NCBI GenBank assembly: GCA_020697255.1
Contig: JAJFBE010000007.1
Span: 93,410 to 125,409, forward strand
DNA: 32,000 nt
Source of the DNA: Burkholderiales bacterium
GTDB taxonomy: Bacteria; Pseudomonadota; Gammaproteobacteria; Burkholderiales; UBA11063
Reading direction: 5' to 3'
The first letter of the stretch is position 1, and every line of letters begins with the position of its first letter. Position numbers and translations under genes: made by a program. The notes below the pieces were generated by a model. It searched no databases, was not told the origin of the DNA, and worked only from the letters and a program-made list of their open reading frames with translations. Positions 3,246-18,690 of the stretch are shown piece after piece.

Positions 3246-4487
3246 ATGAATCAAAATAGAGCACTGTTTAGCATATTTTTAACCATATTTATCGCTTTAC
3301 TGGGAGTAGGAGTACTTATCCCCATATATCCGTTATTGGTAGTTTCCCATTCACCATTTAGAGTAATTCCAGACTCCTGGTCATCTGGTTCTGGGCTACT
3401 AATGCTTGGTTGGTTAAGTGCCTCATTCCCTATGGCACAATTTATCTCTTCACCAATCTGGGGACAGTTATCCGATAAGTTCGGCCGCAAAAGAACTATG
3501 CTTTTATCAGTATTTGGTACTTCAATATCTTATTTATTATTTGCCATAGCAATTATATACAAAAATATTCCATTACTTTTTTTCTCGCGGATAATGGATG
3601 GTTGTGCTGGTGGAAATATAGCTATTGCCCAGGCAGCAATTGCAGACATTAGTACTCCGCAAAACAGAGCTAAAAACTTTGGGCTAATCGGAATGGCTTT
3701 TGGTCTGGGTTTTATTATAGGACCAGTAATTGGTGGAGTTTTTTCTAATCACAATTTGGTCAGCTGGTTTAATGCAGCAACACCATTTTATTTTATTGCC
3801 GGATTATGTTTTTTCAACATGTTTTTTATAATTAAATTTTTACCTGAAACATTAAAAATAAGAAGCGAAAAACGTATAAATATTACAAAACCACTTCATA
3901 ATATCGCTATGGCATTTTCAAAACCAGGCCTTCGCAATATAATGCCTGCAATTTTTCTGTTTAACGGTGGTTTTACCTTTTTTAGTACATTCTGTGCTGT
4001 AATAATGGCCTCCAAATATCATTTCACACAAACAGCTATTGGCAATTATTTTGCTTATGTTGGGGTAATGATTGTCTTATCCCAGGGCATTTTAGTCAGG
4101 AGGATTGCAAAAGTTGCCAAAGATTACCAGGTATTACGGTTTAGCTTATTTGGGACGGGTATTTGTTTAATGGCATATTTCTTTATTCCTACCGGCTCCT
4201 ACTATTTATTATACGTCATACCACCTTTTTTAGCCGGGTGTAATGCCCTAACCATGTCATTTAACGGAGCGCTAATAACCCGGGTTACGCCTGAGAATAT
4301 GCGCGGAGAAGCAATGGGAATTAATTCTAGCGTTATGGCTATGTCCTGGGCAATTCCGGCAATAATATCAGGATATATCGCAAGTATTGGAGAAACATTA
4401 CCTATACTTGTTGGCAGTATTGTTTGTATAAGTGGCGGCGTGTGCTTCTGGTTAATGTTTAATCCAAAACAATTCCCTAACGTTTAA
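3246..4487 (+). CDS. MFS transporter, DHA1/TetA-like drug:H+ antiporter family
   Basis: 413 aa and highly hydrophobic, with about 12 TM segments. MFS motif A, GQLSDKFGRKR, lies after the second TM segment. The gene ends 13 nt before prlC. Confidence 0.85.
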   Translation: MNQNRALFSIFLTIFIALLGVGVLIPIYPLLVVSHSPFRVIPDSWSSGSGLLMLGWLSASFPMAQFISSPIWGQLSDKFGRKRTMLLSVFGTSISYLLFAIAIIYKNIPLLFFSRIMDGCAGGNIAIAQAAIADISTPQNRAKNFGLIGMAFGLGFIIGPVIGGVFSNHNLVSWFNAATPFYFIAGLCFFNMFFIIKFLPETLKIRSEKRINITKPLHNIAMAFSKPGLRNIMPAIFLFNGGFTFFSTFCAVIMASKYHFTQTAIGNYFAYVGVMIVLSQGILVRRIAKVAKDYQVLRFSLFGTGICLMAYFFIPTGSYYLLYVIPPFLAGCNALTMSFNGALITRVTPENMRGEAMGINSSVMAMSWAIPAIISGYIASIGETLPILVGSIVCISGGVCFWLMFNPKQFPNV

Positions 4488-8710: not shown

Positions 8711-9427
8711 TTAATTACTATCTGAATCCGAACCTGTATCTGTATCTGTATCCGAACCTGTATCCTGATCTAGATCTTTAATATAGAAAGGAAGTGCTTT
8801 ATTTATCAAAAAATTATGTTCATTGTCTGCATCGTTAGGCTCATAGTATCCTACTTTGTAATTAGTTATTTTTAGCTTACACTGAAACCAGATCCCACTA
8901 CTACCGGAGATTTTTTCAGCACGGGGATTGCCATCACCATCGAAAGACATTGTAAAAAAACCCGTAGCTCTCCAGTATTTAGGGGAAAGTTTACTTTGTT
9001 CCAGCTTTGAATCTGCTGGGTATATATATCCTGACGTAATAGTACTTGTTATAGGATCTGCATTACCAAAATACCCCCCCTTATAGTTAAATATATTAGG
9101 ATAATAAAAGTTGCTTTTTAAATTCGAACCCGAACATTTTTCTAAAGGGGTATTAGCTGCCCAACATGACAAATATATGTACCTAACTATATGTTTCCCT
9201 TCTTTTCTACCTATAATTTCCTCCTGGTTTTGTTCCACTTCCCATAAATTGGTAATGCTTGGGTCATTTATAACCCTTTTTTCGCCATTTGCATATTTTA
9301 TTGTAATTTGCTGTGGAATAGGCTTGCAAAGTAAATGTTCATAAGTTTTTATTTCAGCTATACATACACATGGTATAAACGTAATAAATAAACCAGATAA
9401 AAAACTTTTTAAAGATAATTTTTTCAT
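8711..9427 (-). CDS. Secreted hypothetical protein with an acidic D/T/S/G-repeat C-terminal tail
   Basis: Start re-set to ATG 9427 (MKKLSLKSFLSGLFITFIPCVCIA/EIK, a signal peptide); the track start at 9535 adds 36 non-signal residues. The C-terminus is DLDQDTGSDTDTDTGSDSDSN, encoded by a gaacctgtatc-type DNA repeat at 8714-8770. The blocks FQCKLKI...KALPFY may be distantly related to the six-cysteine family. Confidence 0.6.
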   Translation of the reverse strand: MKKLSLKSFLSGLFITFIPCVCIAEIKTYEHLLCKPIPQQITIKYANGEKRVINDPSITNLWEVEQNQEEIIGRKEGKHIVRYIYLSCWAANTPLEKCSGSNLKSNFYYPNIFNYKGGYFGNADPITSTITSGYIYPADSKLEQSKLSPKYWRATGFFTMSFDGDGNPRAEKISGSSGIWFQCKLKITNYKVGYYEPNDADNEHNFLINKALPFYIKDLDQDTGSDTDTDTGSDSDSN

Positions 9428-9601
9428 TTCACATCCTAATAAGAAAACACCAATATCAATTAGATAAATATTTATAATTATACCATTTTCCAGGGATTTC
9501 TGCTGGCCTTTCATTTTTACAGCATAGAGGAACACTTTATGTCATCCTCGGACTTTTTCTAGGGATCCATAATGCTTATAATAAATTTGGATTATTAAAA
9601 A

Positions 9602-12403
9602 TTAAGCTATATTCTTAATTCTGTTATCATCGGTTTTTAAAATAACAGTCAGATATGGCGGAATGATAGCAGGATCAATTTCTTCGCCAGTTAGCATTAC
9701 CAAATTGGTAAATCCCTTTTTGTTTAATTTTTTTGCTATTTCTATCCCATCCCCGATATATTTAGGTTTTAGGCCCCAATTTTCGGAATAAAAATGGTCA
9801 AGCACAATTTTGGTATTTAACGGATACTGCTCTACATCCTCAAGAAAAACATTCGGATTACTGTACATATCAACTTTTAGATGCGGGAAAAAGCGCTCAA
9901 CATACCCATGTACAAAACCCAAATCATCATCGACACATACCATGTCTACTTTTTTACTGCCTTGCTTTATTTGTTTATCCACATTTATGGCAACAGCAAA
10001 AACTAGTTCTTTCGGCAGGATTTTAACTCCTAGATTCGCAGCTCTTTCACGTATTTCAATATTATCATAGTGGCTTGTGACCAAAGTAGAGCGTTTAATA
10101 TTAATTTGCTCTACTACCTGTAACCCATTTATACCATGGTTTAATAATTCATAATCAGTTAACATACAAACTTTATCTCTCTCTTTGACAGATAAAGAAT
10201 TTATAAAATTAATAACATCTACGCCTTTAGTAAAATGTTTTATTGTAAGGCTATCTGATAATTTAGCCAAAATAGGTTCAAATTTCGAGTCCCAGGTACC
10301 ATGAATCGAATCATCGTCATCTAAAACTATTATGGTATCGCCTTTGATGATTTTAACCTCTTCTGCGATCCAACCTGGTGATGGAATTTTAGGTAGCCTT
10401 AACATAATCGAACTACACTCTCCCTCAGTAGAATGTATTTTAAACTCCCCGTAATTACGTTTTAATGTTTCACGAACCTGCGTTAGACCAATTCCGTGAC
10501 CATCCTTCTTACCTGAAGTAACACTAAAATTTCCCTCTATTTTATTAATTAATTCCTGGGACATGCCACAGCCGTTATCTTCAATAAAAACATTTATCCA
10601 GTCAGGTATAATATTAAGCTCAACCTTAATTTTACCATCTGGTTTGTCACCTAGTGCCTGAACCGAATTATTAATAACATTAGAAATCATTCGTTTAAAC
10701 TGCCCCGGTTCTACCTGAGTAAAAGAAAAATAGGCATTTAGCGAGAAATCAGTCTCGATAATAATATTTTTATGTTCAAACCGCTTTTCACTCACGACTT
10801 CGCTTAAAGCCGTTGATACTAGCATCGATTCTGCCAGCTCGTTATTATTTACTTCTTTTTTATAGCTGCCAAGCATATGGCTGGCAATAGCGCTAATACG
10901 CATTGATGCCTGACGTAGGGTGATACGTTTTTGCTCCGGCATAATACCTGCCGTATCCTCTACTATCCCGCGCAGGCTGGCTAGCGGCGATTGAATATCA
11001 TGTACCATCTGCCCAACTATTTTTCTAAACTTTTCCTGCTCCTCTGCAGCAGCTGCAGCCTTTTGTTTTTCATTTTCTAATTTTTGTAATTCATTTTCTA
11101 GTCTAAGGCGTTCTGTTTCTTTTTCTGCCGCCTCTTTTTCTAAAAGCATTTGCTTCATTTTATTTTCTGCTTCTAGCTTTCGGTTCTCATGTTTTAAGCG
11201 TTCAGCTTCTTTCAAAGCAATAAGCTTTTCCTTTTCAGCTAAAGTAGCTTTACTTGCCTCATTTTCAAACTTTAACTGCTCTGCTTCTTTTTGTGCAGTT
11301 ATATCAATTGATATACCAACGAGTCCTATTATTTCTTTATTGCTATTATAAAGAGGGACTTTATTTGACAGAAATACTCCTTGCTTACCATTAGGTAAAT
11401 TCCCAGGTTCTTCCAGTGAAACAGGATTCCCACTCATAACCTCCCAATTAGCCTGATCTAGCTCAGTAACTAATTGATCAGCGCCCTTATTCCAGGGTAA
11501 ATCTTTATTTCTCAACCCAACAATGTCTTTTCTTGATCCAAGCCCGGCTGACTTTGCCTGGTTATTATTGCAACCCAAATAAACACCATTTGTATCTAAC
11601 CAGTAAACATGGCCAGGCATAATAGCAATTATATTTTCCAACATTTCCAAATATTCTTTGTCTTTGGTTAAATCATTAATACTGTTAACGCTGTCAAATA
11701 TCCGGGGCTTAAACTGATCCGCATGTCTAAACCTAATTGTAGCAGGATGTAATAACTCCGGATACTTTGGCAATACGAATTTTTTATGTGTTGCACTCAT
11801 AGCCTCATTTCTAGGCCCTGGATAAACTTCAAATTGACAATTCAAGGATGTCCATAAACATAATGCTGCGCATTCCTCGGTTAAATAAGCCATAGAAAGC
11901 TGCTTAGCACGGCTTATGTTAAAATTACTATCAGGGCTAGATCTTTTTCTCGATTTGTCAACAAAATTTTCTACAACTTTATCAAATTTAGCTTTATAAG
12001 CCGGATCGGTTTTTATGGCCTCTCTAATCATATTATTGTGCTGTTTGAAGTTGTCATGCTTAAGCCATTGGTCCCAATGTAATATTTTATAAGGGATAGT
12101 TAAGCTATCATAATATTGTTTATTTCTCTGCAACCAATTCCTACCTTCCAGTATTGCTAAGTTATAATAATCATCTGGAGATTTATCACTATTTAAGGCC
12201 ATAGTATAACGTTGTAAGCTATCATCAACTAAAATAATACATGATTTAAAAGATTTATTAATTAGGTCAATTGTCAGCTTAAAAAGCTCTCCTTCGTGCA
12301 TTTCTTGCCCCACACTAATAGTTAAAAGACAGGCAGAGTCAGCAAATTGTGCTTTTTGCTCTAAACTAATATTTTTAAATGCAATTTTTATTTTATTTTC
12401 CAT
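9602..12403 (-). CDS. Cytoplasmic hybrid sensor histidine kinase: cyclodipeptide-synthase-like N-domain + PAS + coiled coil + HisKA/HATPase_c + two receiver domains
   Basis: 933 aa with no TM segment. PAS at aa ~245-370. E/K-rich coiled coil at ~372-460. H-box VH468DIQSPL, N-box NVINNS, G1 EDNGCGM, G2 GHGIGL. REC1 has DD695/696, D750 and LVTS; REC2 has VCVDDD, D869 and MLTG. For the N-terminal 235 aa see the findings. GGAG lies 11 nt upstream of the ATG. Confidence 0.85.
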   Translation of the reverse strand: MENKIKIAFKNISLEQKAQFADSACLLTISVGQEMHEGELFKLTIDLINKSFKSCIILVDDSLQRYTMALNSDKSPDDYYNLAILEGRNWLQRNKQYYDSLTIPYKILHWDQWLKHDNFKQHNNMIREAIKTDPAYKAKFDKVVENFVDKSRKRSSPDSNFNISRAKQLSMAYLTEECAALCLWTSLNCQFEVYPGPRNEAMSATHKKFVLPKYPELLHPATIRFRHADQFKPRIFDSVNSINDLTKDKEYLEMLENIIAIMPGHVYWLDTNGVYLGCNNNQAKSAGLGSRKDIVGLRNKDLPWNKGADQLVTELDQANWEVMSGNPVSLEEPGNLPNGKQGVFLSNKVPLYNSNKEIIGLVGISIDITAQKEAEQLKFENEASKATLAEKEKLIALKEAERLKHENRKLEAENKMKQMLLEKEAAEKETERLRLENELQKLENEKQKAAAAAEEQEKFRKIVGQMVHDIQSPLASLRGIVEDTAGIMPEQKRITLRQASMRISAIASHMLGSYKKEVNNNELAESMLVSTALSEVVSEKRFEHKNIIIETDFSLNAYFSFTQVEPGQFKRMISNVINNSVQALGDKPDGKIKVELNIIPDWINVFIEDNGCGMSQELINKIEGNFSVTSGKKDGHGIGLTQVRETLKRNYGEFKIHSTEGECSSIMLRLPKIPSPGWIAEEVKIIKGDTIIVLDDDDSIHGTWDSKFEPILAKLSDSLTIKHFTKGVDVINFINSLSVKERDKVCMLTDYELLNHGINGLQVVEQINIKRSTLVTSHYDNIEIRERAANLGVKILPKELVFAVAINVDKQIKQGSKKVDMVCVDDDLGFVHGYVERFFPHLKVDMYSNPNVFLEDVEQYPLNTKIVLDHFYSENWGLKPKYIGDGIEIAKKLNKKGFTNLVMLTGEEIDPAIIPPYLTVILKTDDNRIKNIA

Positions 12404-13143
12404 AATATTATGCTCCGCTATGCTAAATTAATACTCTTTTACAAACTAGTACTTGGTAAAGTATTTATATTTTATAATCAGGATAATAATGAATTAATAT
12501 GTTATCGTGTCTTACTAACCTATGTATTACAAGTAATATGTTTATTACATCAAACCCTATAAATATTAGTAATGAAATGCTTTGCACATTTTACCATTTT
12601 ATAAGTTTCACTATTTGTGGAATAAACAATATAGCATTTATAAAAACACCAATTCCTATTATAAATTCTATAATATTTACGAAGGAACGCATACATAGTC
12701 CCGATATGGTAATTATTTACAATTGTTTTTAAAGACAAGCATATAGGTGGATAAGAATAATTTTCTATTATAGCATGTTGATAAATTTGTGTAACTATTT
12801 TATTTAGTATAAGCAATTGTATAAATATGACTCCAAATTTAGCAATTTCATTTTTTAAGTAGATATAGTTTAATAACTGCCTACACATATAGATGTTTAT
12901 AAGGTTTGTGAAAAACCTGGTAATTATATCCTCATAAACATAATGAACATTGTATAATTGTAGTCTAATTCTGAGTAATATAGTTAACTTTTTTGTGGCT
13001 TATATAAAATTATATATTATCATATTATTTTATTGAAGTTATAAAGTTTAACGTATTTTATATAACCTGCTCGTTTAATTATCTTCTTATTATAACTTCA
13101 GTATAAAATTATTTTAATTTTTTGTTATAAGAGAGAATTTTAA

Positions 13144-14508
13144 ATGACGCTAGCGCAAAATAGTTCATTAGATAATGTTAAACCCCTTACAGGGTATGAA
13201 GTTTATAAAACATTACTCCTAGTAAACCCTGAATTAGCTAAATGTATAAAAAATTACATTACTAATGATGAAATAATTGCTTTTAAAGCAAGCTACCCTT
13301 TTGGCAGTAAAATCATTAAGAATCGTGAAGTATTCTTACCACTTGATAACGGTGAAAGCATATCGTTTAATGATCAAAGGTTACCCTCATTATTACGTGA
13401 ACATCTGAGCTATAATCCAGGAGTTAATAATCCAGTCGGAATAATTTTAAGTAAAGACTCTGAATTTTATATGCAGCATAACGACCGTGTTGAATCTTAT
13501 CAAATAGTATCCCCGGGACATTTAATTGGTTTTGCACATATCATGGACAGTGTTGCATCACCCAAAAATCCCAAAGTTCAGAAAAAAATATATATTTCTG
13601 ATTTAGATTTGGATGCAGGCGCTAGGTTACTTTTTATGCTGGCTAATATATCTAATAGCCAGCAACATAACAATTTACTGGAAGCATATGGAATAAATAT
13701 TGCTAAACCTACTGATTATATGCAGCAATGCAATATTTTTAGAGCAATTAGTAATAGTGCACCGTCATGGGCACAAGATATTATATTTTTTTCAAATAAA
13801 TTTTCAAATGAATTAATCATAGACCCAACAAAGAGAGAACTATATGCACAATTTAGCCATACCCATCGTTCGGCTTATACTGTATGGCATTATGCAATTC
13901 GTACCTGGGATAGTGAGATCAACAGGATAATGAGTGCAACAGGAGCAAATGATTATTCGTCTTATGCTGTAAATATTGCCAAACATTTATTTTTAATTGC
14001 TATCGGCGGCGCTCCTGGTTTTGCCCCGGTAATTGACGACAGAATGTGCCCAAAATCACTAATAGAAGAAGCATATACAACCAAAGGATATGGCTTGACA
14101 AGACAATGGCCTACTCTTATGCAGCCAGAGATATTTAATTTGGAAAACAATCAGCCGGTTTATTACTCACCAAATTTATCTACGTTATTTAACTTTAACC
14201 CGGAAACATTTAAAGGTAAAACAGTTATCGATCTTCTGGATAAGGTATTAACTGTTGTCAACTTATGCCAAAATTATGTATTAAAGAACTTAAAAAGCAA
14301 AGAATCATATTTATATGACATTATGAAAAGCGTGAAATTTTCTTTTTATCACAGTAATCCCGATCCTGAAAACTTTAGCCGGGAGATTAAGAATAGTCTA
14401 CTGCTACCTGAAGAAGACGCACGATTTCATAAACATGGCTGGGTTTTCCCTAACCTAAGCCATTTTGTACGTGGATGTATCAAAATTGAGCCAATAAGTA
14501 ATGCATAA
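13144..14508 (+). CDS. Hypothetical protein (454 aa), no recognisable family
   Basis: Long uninterrupted ORF with normal amino-acid composition. A GAGAG purine tract lies ~9 nt upstream of the ATG. No signal peptide or TM segment. It is divergent from the hybrid kinase gene. Confidence 0.6.
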   Translation: MTLAQNSSLDNVKPLTGYEVYKTLLLVNPELAKCIKNYITNDEIIAFKASYPFGSKIIKNREVFLPLDNGESISFNDQRLPSLLREHLSYNPGVNNPVGIILSKDSEFYMQHNDRVESYQIVSPGHLIGFAHIMDSVASPKNPKVQKKIYISDLDLDAGARLLFMLANISNSQQHNNLLEAYGINIAKPTDYMQQCNIFRAISNSAPSWAQDIIFFSNKFSNELIIDPTKRELYAQFSHTHRSAYTVWHYAIRTWDSEINRIMSATGANDYSSYAVNIAKHLFLIAIGGAPGFAPVIDDRMCPKSLIEEAYTTKGYGLTRQWPTLMQPEIFNLENNQPVYYSPNLSTLFNFNPETFKGKTVIDLLDKVLTVVNLCQNYVLKNLKSKESYLYDIMKSVKFSFYHSNPDPENFSREIKNSLLLPEEDARFHKHGWVFPNLSHFVRGCIKIEPISNA

Positions 14509-17607: not shown

Positions 17608-18690
17608 TCACTCTCTACTATCAAGGCTGGCTAATAATTCGGCCTGGTGCTCAGCAATTAAGGCATCGGTTAATTCAAACAGATCACCATCCATAATCAT
17701 ATCCAGTTTATACAAGGTTAAATTAATCCTATGATCGGTCATTCTTCCTTGCGGAAAATTATAGGTCCGGATACGCTCCGATCTATCGCCACTACCAACC
17801 AAACTTTTCCTGGTTGCAGCTATCTTGGATTGTTGTTCACGTAACTGGGCATCCTTAATCCTGGTAGCCAGTAAGCTTAAAGCCCTGGCTTTATTTTTAT
17901 GCTGTGAACGTTCATCCTGACATTCAACCACCAATCCGGTTGGTAAATGGGTGATCCTGATTGCCGAATCTGTTTTATTAATATGCTGCCCGCCGGCACC
18001 GGAAGCACGATACGTATCAATTCTTAAATCTGCCGGGTTAATTTGTGCATCTTGCACCTCATCAGCTTCCGGCATAATTGCCACGGTACACGCCGAAGTA
18101 TGAACACGACCTTGTGTTTCGGTAACCGGAACCCTTTGTACCCGGTGCGCACCTGATTCAAATTTTAACTTGGAATAAGCCCCATAACCAATGATTTTAG
18201 CAATGATTTCTTTATAGCCACCCAAATCAGAAGGTGATTCAGAAATAATTTCTACCTGCCAGGAATTGCGTTCTGCAAATCTTGAATACATACGAAATAA
18301 ATTTGCTGAAAACAGGGCTGATTCATCGCCCCCAGTACCAGCCCTGATCTCTAAATAAATATTTTTTTCATCATTAGGGTCTTTAGGTAATAAAAGCTTT
18401 TGTAATTCAGCTTCTAATTGCAGGATATTTTCTTTGGCAGTAGCCAGTTCTTCAGCTGCAAAATCTTTCATCTGCGGGTCATTAAGCAATTCATTTGCAA
18501 CAGCTAAATCATTAACTGCATCAACATACTGGTGATATGTTGTAACCACCGGCTGTAATTCAGCATACTCCCTGTTTAATTTTGTATACTGCTCCATATT
18601 GTCTGTAACCTCTGGCTGCGATAACAGCCCAGATAGCTCTCCAATACGTTTGGAGAGTATCTCCAACTTATCTATTACACTTTGCTTCAT
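17608..18690 (-). CDS. prfA: Peptide chain release factor 1
   Basis: 360 aa. GGQ motif ([11 protein letters not shown]) and the RF1-type PVT tripeptide ([10 protein letters not shown]). Confidence 0.95.

Follow-up and report, generated by a model that had tools for sequence, protein, structure and literature searches.

A cyclodipeptide synthase domain of the XYP subfamily fused to a predicted PAS hybrid histidine kinase with two receiver domains in a Burkholderiales bacterium

Nearly all that is known of cyclodipeptide synthases (CDPSs) concerns their work in secondary metabolism, and the role of cyclodipeptides for the producing cell is mostly unknown. The known CDPSs use a ping-pong mechanism on aminoacyl-tRNAs, and their conserved catalytic set corresponds to S37, Y178, E182 and Y202 of AlbC (PMC11580168). 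Several fusions with other domains have been reported (PMC5816076): the CDPS is joined to a P450 in 'CDPS 71', to a methyltransferase or an ABC transporter in others, and to an unknown domain at the C-terminus of a Legionellaceae cAA CDPS. The present analysis concerns a stretch of 32,000 nucleotides, here called the window, from the genome of a Burkholderiales bacterium (assembly GCA_020697255.1, contig JAJFBE010000007.1; G000:C8:93410-125409). At about C8:103011-105812 it carries a single open reading frame (ORF) of 933 residues, in which an N-terminal CDPS domain is joined to a PAS domain, a histidine kinase (HK) and two receiver (REC) domains (Table 1). A literature search for CDPSs combined with HKs, PAS or PQ-loop domains yielded no described fusion or pairing, in agreement with the preliminary description of this DNA, which knew of no CDPS–HK fusion. 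Both the combination of a CDPS with a hybrid HK and the conserved CDPS–PAS-sensor neighbourhood reported below appear to be undescribed, while each domain comes from a known family.

The N-terminal ~240 residues are a true CDPS of the XYP subfamily, as demonstrated by a family profile, a structure model and a set of conserved residues. With the first 235 residues, 203 standalone proteins of ~240 aa were found (45-59% identity, query coverage 93-100%), one of which, from Ca. Endohaliclona, bears the UniRef name 'Cyclodipeptide synthase'. A family profile built from 27 standalone homologues retrieved from the PDB only CDPS chains: the Fluoribacter dumoffii enzyme (Fdum-CDPS, 5OCD) ranked first with E=7e-85, followed by that of Nocardia brasiliensis (Nbra-CDPS, 1e-46) and, lower, by the CDPSs of Rickettsiella, Streptomyces sapporonensis, Glomeribacter and Parcubacteria. 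The AlphaFold2 (AF2) model of residues 1-235 (pLDDT 93.7, pTM 0.89) adopts the Rossmann fold of CDPSs, which resembles that of class-Ic aminoacyl-tRNA synthetases (aaRSs). In Foldseek this model superimposes on 5OCD with a template-modelling (TM) score of 0.90 and a root-mean-square deviation of 1.5 Å over 222 columns. The top matches are all CDPSs, comprising the Nbra-, Rgry-, Sapp- and Cglo-CDPSs, AlbC (3OQV, TM 0.54), YvmC and Rv2275, and the nearest structures are the XYP enzymes Fdum, Nbra and Rgry.

The catalytic landmarks are readily recognised within this fold. S30 lies at the end of the strand formed by residues 24-30 and is aligned with the Ser of 5OCD. Invariant in the 27 standalone homologues are S30, within the S-x-x-Q pattern of its motif, the pair Y173...E177 (YxxxE) and the dipeptide Y194-P195. 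The mapping of these residues onto AlbC relies on their conservation, on the HMMER alignment to 5OCD and on matching spacings, the distance from Ser to Tyr being 143 residues vs 141 in AlbC and that from Tyr to Glu being 4. The position of AlbC N40 is occupied by Q33 and is thus devoid of Asn, a feature which, together with Y194-P195, places the domain in the XYP subfamily. PF16715 was not matched in a single-sequence Pfam scan of the fused protein, and NCBIfam TIGR04539 scores the N-terminal domain at 27.4 bits, below its 45-bit cut-off; the standalone homologues are likewise sub-threshold. These scores are not taken against the assignment, because the homologue profile and the structure settle the identity. 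Furthermore, the CDPS domain is most likely catalytically active, a prediction based on the retention of the catalytic set even in divergent fused homologues (29-36% identity; P0125 and G004), which points to selection on catalysis.

The C-terminal part of the protein is a predicted hybrid HK, composed of a PAS domain, a kinase core and two receiver domains. Pfam recognises PAS_4 and HATPase_c, the latter with the N-box NVINNS at residue 575, the G1 box EDNGCGM at 608 and the G2 box GHGIGL at 635. Region 380-690 matches solved kinase structures (for example ZraS, KinB and HK853) that contain the dimerization and histidine phosphotransfer (DHp) domain and the catalytic and ATP-binding (CA) domain. 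Although Pfam HisKA is not called for the window protein, the conserved H-box and the match to solved HK DHp domains identify residues around H468 as the predicted DHp domain. Searching the C-terminal 253 residues with phmmer against the PDB sequences did not find a REC domain; consequently, the REC assignment rests on an AF2 model, on Foldseek and on the Pfam annotation of the close homologue P0122. The model, built with four fused homologues, contains two α/β receiver-like domains (pLDDT 86), and its best Foldseek matches are REC-REC tandems such as 3MF4/3LUF and PleD, single REC domains being matched as well. The conserved Asp residues of both domains are found at the C-terminal ends of β1 and β3. 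According to the alignment of fused homologues, D750 (in LTD750YEL) and D869 (in LD869HFY) are both conserved, and the counterpart of REC2 in P0122 is a Pfam Response_reg domain. Collectively, these findings leave very little doubt about the anatomy of the whole fused protein.

Most of this anatomy had been proposed in the preliminary description from landmark residues, and it holds up well. S30, Y173, E177, Y194, P195, H468, D750 and D869 are all located as it had numbered them, Q33, the N, G1 and G2 boxes and the E/K repeats are present as well, the 933-aa frame is devoid of transmembrane segments (the top 19-residue hydrophobic window reaches a Kyte–Doolittle (KD) value of 1.38), and the Ser-to-Tyr spacing is the one it gave. 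The CDPS identity of the N-terminal domain, its placement among the XYP enzymes from the Tyr-Pro pair, the expected class-Ic aaRS-like fold and the hybrid nature of the C-terminal kinase are borne out by the profile, model and Pfam results given above. In the profile-HMM searches the family profile retrieved solved CDPSs, and the Pfam CDPS family gave no single-sequence match.

Proteins of the same fused architecture occur in no fewer than five further genomes or metagenomes. The closest fused homologue (P0126/P0010) comes from a metagenome-assembled genome labelled Aquella sp. (Neisseriaceae). P0122 (892 aa) shares 81% identity with the window protein; P0123 and P0124 are also fused, P0124 with an extra PAS domain, and P0125, with a CDPS domain of 36% identity, matches Pfam PF16715 and HisKA and lacks the RECs. 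A fused open frame is also present in G004, a second member of the genus to which the window belongs. Y173, E177, Y194 and H468 are invariant in all seven fused sequences, and S30 is kept wherever that position is covered. Some standalone CDPS relatives derive from Legionellaceae (Tatlockia), unlike the Aquella-labelled fused homologue.

Standalone members of the same CDPS clade usually adjoin a gene for a PAS-HK, typically followed by one for a response regulator (RR), as is apparent from the metagenomic loci L005-L009 and L010. The gene order is CDPS, PQ-loop-PAS-PAS-HATPase HK and REC protein at the P0006 locus; CDPS, HK and RR at that of P0029; and CDPS, PQ-loop protein, HK, RR, GerE and CsrA at that of P0013. 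The CDPS P0039 is followed by a PAS-HisKA-HATPase HK, and P0004, one of the standalone CDPSs most closely related to the fused clade, has a PAS-HK gene on each side. The HK of the window shows homology to its split-form counterparts across the PAS region, with strong conservation of the PAS domain; their N-terminal PQ-loop membrane segment and their first PAS domain have no equivalent in it. The split-form RRs consist of a REC and an uncharacterised C-terminal domain of ~200 aa, and five paralogues of this kind occur in the genome carrying the window. The PQ-loop is often N-terminal in the HK beside a standalone CDPS, or is encoded by a separate gene between CDPS and HK; these neighbourhoods hint that the PQ-loop protein might move the cyclodipeptide. 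On the contigs carrying P0013 (L008/L009), genes for GerE, CsrA, a large leucine-rich-repeat protein and a PIN/Phd toxin–antitoxin pair surround the CDPS–HK–RR cluster.

The same genome carries a second, standalone CDPS (C7:500735-501397; 225 aa, 36% identity to the fused domain), located between a PQ-loop gene and a gene for a PAS-LuxR(GerE) regulator. At this locus (L002, G000:C7:499235-502897, with the CDPS at L002:1489-2166) the PQ-loop membrane protein has 113 aa and the PAS-LuxR protein 387 aa, so that the PAS-sensor partner is here a transcription factor.

Maximum-likelihood analysis groups the CDPS domains of the fused proteins (window, Aquella P0010 and P0122-P0124) with full support; this clade lies within the standalone CDPSs and has the P0001-P0005 group as its sister, and CDPSs split from but accompanied by an HK are scattered over the tree. 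Because of this nested position, the fusion is regarded as a state derived from the split pairing. The pairing of a CDPS with a PAS sensor is thus ancestral and widespread, the fusion having joined neighbouring genes. Following the Rosetta-stone argument, the recurrent adjacency of CDPS and PAS sensor, together with their fusion, indicates a functional link. This suggests that the making of a cyclodipeptide and the sensing of something related to it go together, as judged from gene arrangement.

The explanation that best accounts for these observations, and that is favoured here with moderate confidence, is a soluble cytoplasmic protein uniting a CDPS and a two-component system in one polypeptide, with their functions coupled. 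In the proposed sequence of events, the CDPS domain would take two aminoacyl-tRNAs, passing through an acyl-enzyme on Ser30 and then a dipeptidyl-enzyme intermediate, and would release a 2,5-diketopiperazine with the assistance of Tyr173, Glu177 and Tyr194. The kinase would autophosphorylate at His468, with D750 of REC1 as the main phospho-acceptor. The logic would be that of a synthase and its receptor, as in quorum-sensing modules: the cyclodipeptide, or a condition related to it, would be perceived by the PAS domain, which would in turn set the phosphorylation state of the kinase (H468) and of the RECs, REC1 included. Sensing would take place in cis in the cytoplasm, or as feedback on the same molecule, in the fused form, and through a possibly membrane-linked PQ-loop HK in the split form. 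No Hpt domain (PF01627) was found at the Pfam cut-off in the genome, although such domains are easily missed; since a partner for further relay is not detectable, the phosphorylated RECs may regulate the attached CDPS or serve as a phosphate sink. The genome without a detected Hpt yet carries several RR paralogues made of a REC and the uncharacterised domain. This specific coupling mechanism, which draws on the gene pairing, is proposed tentatively, at somewhat less than even likelihood.

A more far-reaching version is possible but rather doubtful: the protein may be a self-contained cyclodipeptide signalling unit, in which the CDPS product would be bound by the PAS domain attached to the synthase, or by that of the other subunit of a dimer, coupling the synthesis and the sensing of the signal in cis. 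The protein might then be one member of an undescribed family of two-component systems that are based on cyclodipeptides and widespread among soil and aquatic bacteria; in the split forms, a PQ-loop membrane protein may carry the cyclodipeptide across the membrane. The recurrent CDPS–sensor kinase link, covalent in this protein and present in many relatives as a conserved neighbourhood of genes, would show that cyclodipeptides, or tRNA-dependent peptide-bond formation itself, enter signal transduction, and the fused protein makes this link testable with one construct. If the PAS domain does bind the product, autoinducer synthase and receptor would form a pair of a new class, built from a ribosome-independent enzyme that uses aminoacyl-tRNA.

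Several observations weigh against this interpretation of a coupled synthase and kinase. CDPS HMMs score the N-terminal domain only below threshold, even though the modelled structure is unambiguous. The H-box reads HD..SP instead of the canonical HE.RTP. In REC2, 8 inserted residues separate the phospho-Asp from the DG motif, where P0123/P0124 also have an insertion, and this domain may therefore be a pseudo-receiver. Within the genus the fusion is sporadic, being present in 2 of the 38 genomes, and RNA support for the locus was not found, the only runs that contain it being two soil-metagenome DNA runs. It should also be considered that product sensing, substrate sensing and phospho-control of the CDPS would each be compatible with the sequence.

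Substrate sensing underlies an alternative that is considered unlikely, in which the CDPS domain, catalytic or not, would sense aminoacyl-tRNA and gate the kinase; the docking of the charged acceptor arm, or acyl-enzyme formation, would then report amino-acid or translation status. CDPSs do bind the acceptor arms of aminoacyl-tRNAs (PMC13062777, PMC7566563), the CDPS domain directly adjoins the PAS sensor, and the cytoplasmic nature of the HK implies an intracellular signal. The catalytic residues, however, are kept in divergent fused homologues, and a sensor that only binds its ligand would not be expected to keep them. Moreover, the split-form partner is a membrane-anchored PQ-loop PAS-HK, physically separate from the CDPS, and a diffusible product fits this arrangement better.

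Of comparably low probability is phospho-control in the manner of PleD, where PAS and HK would sense an unrelated cue and REC phosphorylation would switch the CDPS, as output domain, on or off. The tandem RECs, whose closest solved structures are of the PleD-type REC-REC arrangement, agree with such a scheme, as do the lack of a DNA-binding or other output domain in the fused protein and the failure to find an Hpt domain in the genome for further relay. Hpt domains, however, easily escape detection. Moreover, in the split form the CDPS is separate and the RR has its own output domain; contact between REC and CDPS therefore cannot be the ancestral logic.

A fusion without any mechanistic coupling, through which a secondary-metabolite CDPS would simply be co-expressed with a regulator of other targets, is quite improbable. 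Its sporadic occurrence within the genus and the frequent fusion of CDPSs to unrelated tailoring and transport domains (PMC5816076) would be compatible with it, but the pairing of CDPS and PAS sensor is repeated in separate genomes, a Rosetta-stone pattern that implies functional linkage.

The authenticity of the gene is confirmed by metagenomic data. In an independent soil metagenome of 2021 the locus is represented by contigs that match the window exactly, including one that crosses the CDPS–PAS junction with zero differences, and a soil metagenome of 2025, possibly the source of the sequence, carries the locus in one 142-kb contig. The ORF is intact, its ATG start lying ~8 nt after a Shine-Dalgarno-like site, AGCGGAG. 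An assembly or sequencing chimera, which nothing beyond the rarity of the fusion would favour, has a negligible likelihood and, like a frameshift, is ruled out by the intact ORF, the same architecture in independent homologues and the independent junction-spanning contig.

Table 1. Features of the CDPS–hybrid HK gene; coordinates refer to the window.
Feature	Coordinates	Strand	Basis and remarks
Whole fused ORF, 933 aa, CDPS–PAS–coiled coil–DHp–HATPase–REC–REC	9602..12403	-	ORF call and residue numbering
CDPS domain, XYP subfamily, aa 1-240	11684..12403	-	profile HMM, AF2 model, Foldseek
S30, acyl-enzyme catalytic Ser (= AlbC S37), in invariant CLLTISVGQ motif	12314..12316	-	conservation, alignment to 5OCD
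Y173 (= AlbC Y178)	11885..11887	-	conservation
E177 (= AlbC E182)	11873..11875	-	conservation
Y194-P195, XYP signature (= AlbC Y202/H203 position)	11819..11824	-	conservation, alignment to 5OCD
PAS_4, aa 266-372	11288..11608	-	Pfam; homologous to PAS of PAS-HK genes beside standalone CDPS genes
E/K-rich coiled coil between PAS and DHp, aa 373-460	11024..11287	-	KEAERLKHEN at 398, KETERLRLEN at 428
H468 in DHp H-box VHDIQSPL	11000..11002	-	invariant in fused homologues
HATPase_c, aa 568-672, N/G1/G2 boxes	10388..10702	-	Pfam E=1.9e-15
REC1, aa ~688-810; DD 695-697, putative phospho-acceptor D750 (codon 10154-10156), T776	9974..10342	-	AF2 and Foldseek, conservation
REC2, aa ~818-933; DDD 825-827, D869 (codon 9797-9799), T905	9605..9952	-	AF2 and Foldseek; Pfam in P0122

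The host genome amounts to 2.33 Mb in 10 contigs, and the window has a GC content of 36%. The neighbours of the fused gene in the window are of housekeeping type: a major facilitator superfamily (MFS) transporter, an M3 peptidase, ParB/ParA, RsmG, PrfA, HemA, a TolC-like outer membrane efflux protein (OEP), a DegT aminotransferase, FtsK and HemX. An ORF at 8711-9535 (-), encoding 274 aa, lies on the same strand 67 bp past the stop of the fused gene and is possibly co-transcribed with it. Its product, with zero matches in Pfam, has a hydrophobic N-terminal stretch and an acidic, Ser/Asp/Thr-rich C-terminus (DTDTDTGSDSDSN). Upstream of the fused gene, positions 12001-14000 are AT-rich (28.7% GC), and the 112-aa ORF within this stretch (12550-12888, -), without a Pfam match, looks spurious. 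The MFS transporter (3246-4487, +) and the release factor PrfA (17608-18690, -) near the fused gene are also found close to the P0004 CDPS locus, which hints at conserved synteny with the fused-gene region.

Among the known systems, Fdum-CDPS is the nearest to the N-terminal domain, with which it shares the fold (TM 0.90), 39% identity, the XYP landmarks and the positions of the catalytic Ser, Tyr, Glu and Tyr; unlike the window protein, it is a standalone enzyme of ~266 aa without signalling domains. The XYP enzymes Nbra-CDPS and Rgry-CDPS and the NYH enzymes AlbC, YvmC and Rv2275 likewise possess the class-Ic aaRS-like Rossmann fold and the Ser37/Tyr178/Glu182/Tyr202 set, and they too are standalone. 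The AlbC-type NYH enzymes are further distinguished by Asn40 and His203, vs Gln and Pro in the window protein. In the known multidomain fusions the CDPS is also N-terminal in a larger protein and remains functional (PMC5816076), but its partners there serve tailoring or export, whereas here they form a PAS–HK–REC–REC unit. The split CDPS/PAS-HK/RR loci share the CDPS clade and a homologous PAS-HK with the fused protein. They differ in having separate genes, an HK with a PQ-loop segment and two PAS domains, and an RR with a C-terminal output domain.

For the signalling part, PleD (REC-REC-GGDEF) and other tandem-REC RRs offer a parallel in their tandem receivers, as detected by Foldseek, and in a possible phosphorylation-controlled enzymatic output. 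PleD differs in that it makes c-di-GMP through its GGDEF domain and contains neither kinase nor CDPS. GCN2 combines a protein kinase with a HisRS-like domain, which responds to uncharged tRNA and drives the Ser/Thr kinase activity. The resemblance to the window protein lies in the joining of an aaRS-like, tRNA-binding domain to a kinase, which tRNA status could gate; the domain of GCN2 is a class II aaRS-like pseudoenzyme, in contrast to the class-Ic-like and probably active CDPS that is here combined with an HK. Finally, the Legionella Lqs system (LqsA synthase, sensor kinases LqsS/LqsT, and LqsR) has the gene for its signal synthase next to those for a sensor kinase and an RR, in analogy with the present synthase–kinase association; the product of LqsA, however, is an α-hydroxyketone whose formation is not tRNA-dependent, and the system consists of separate proteins with membrane sensors (PMC8023197).

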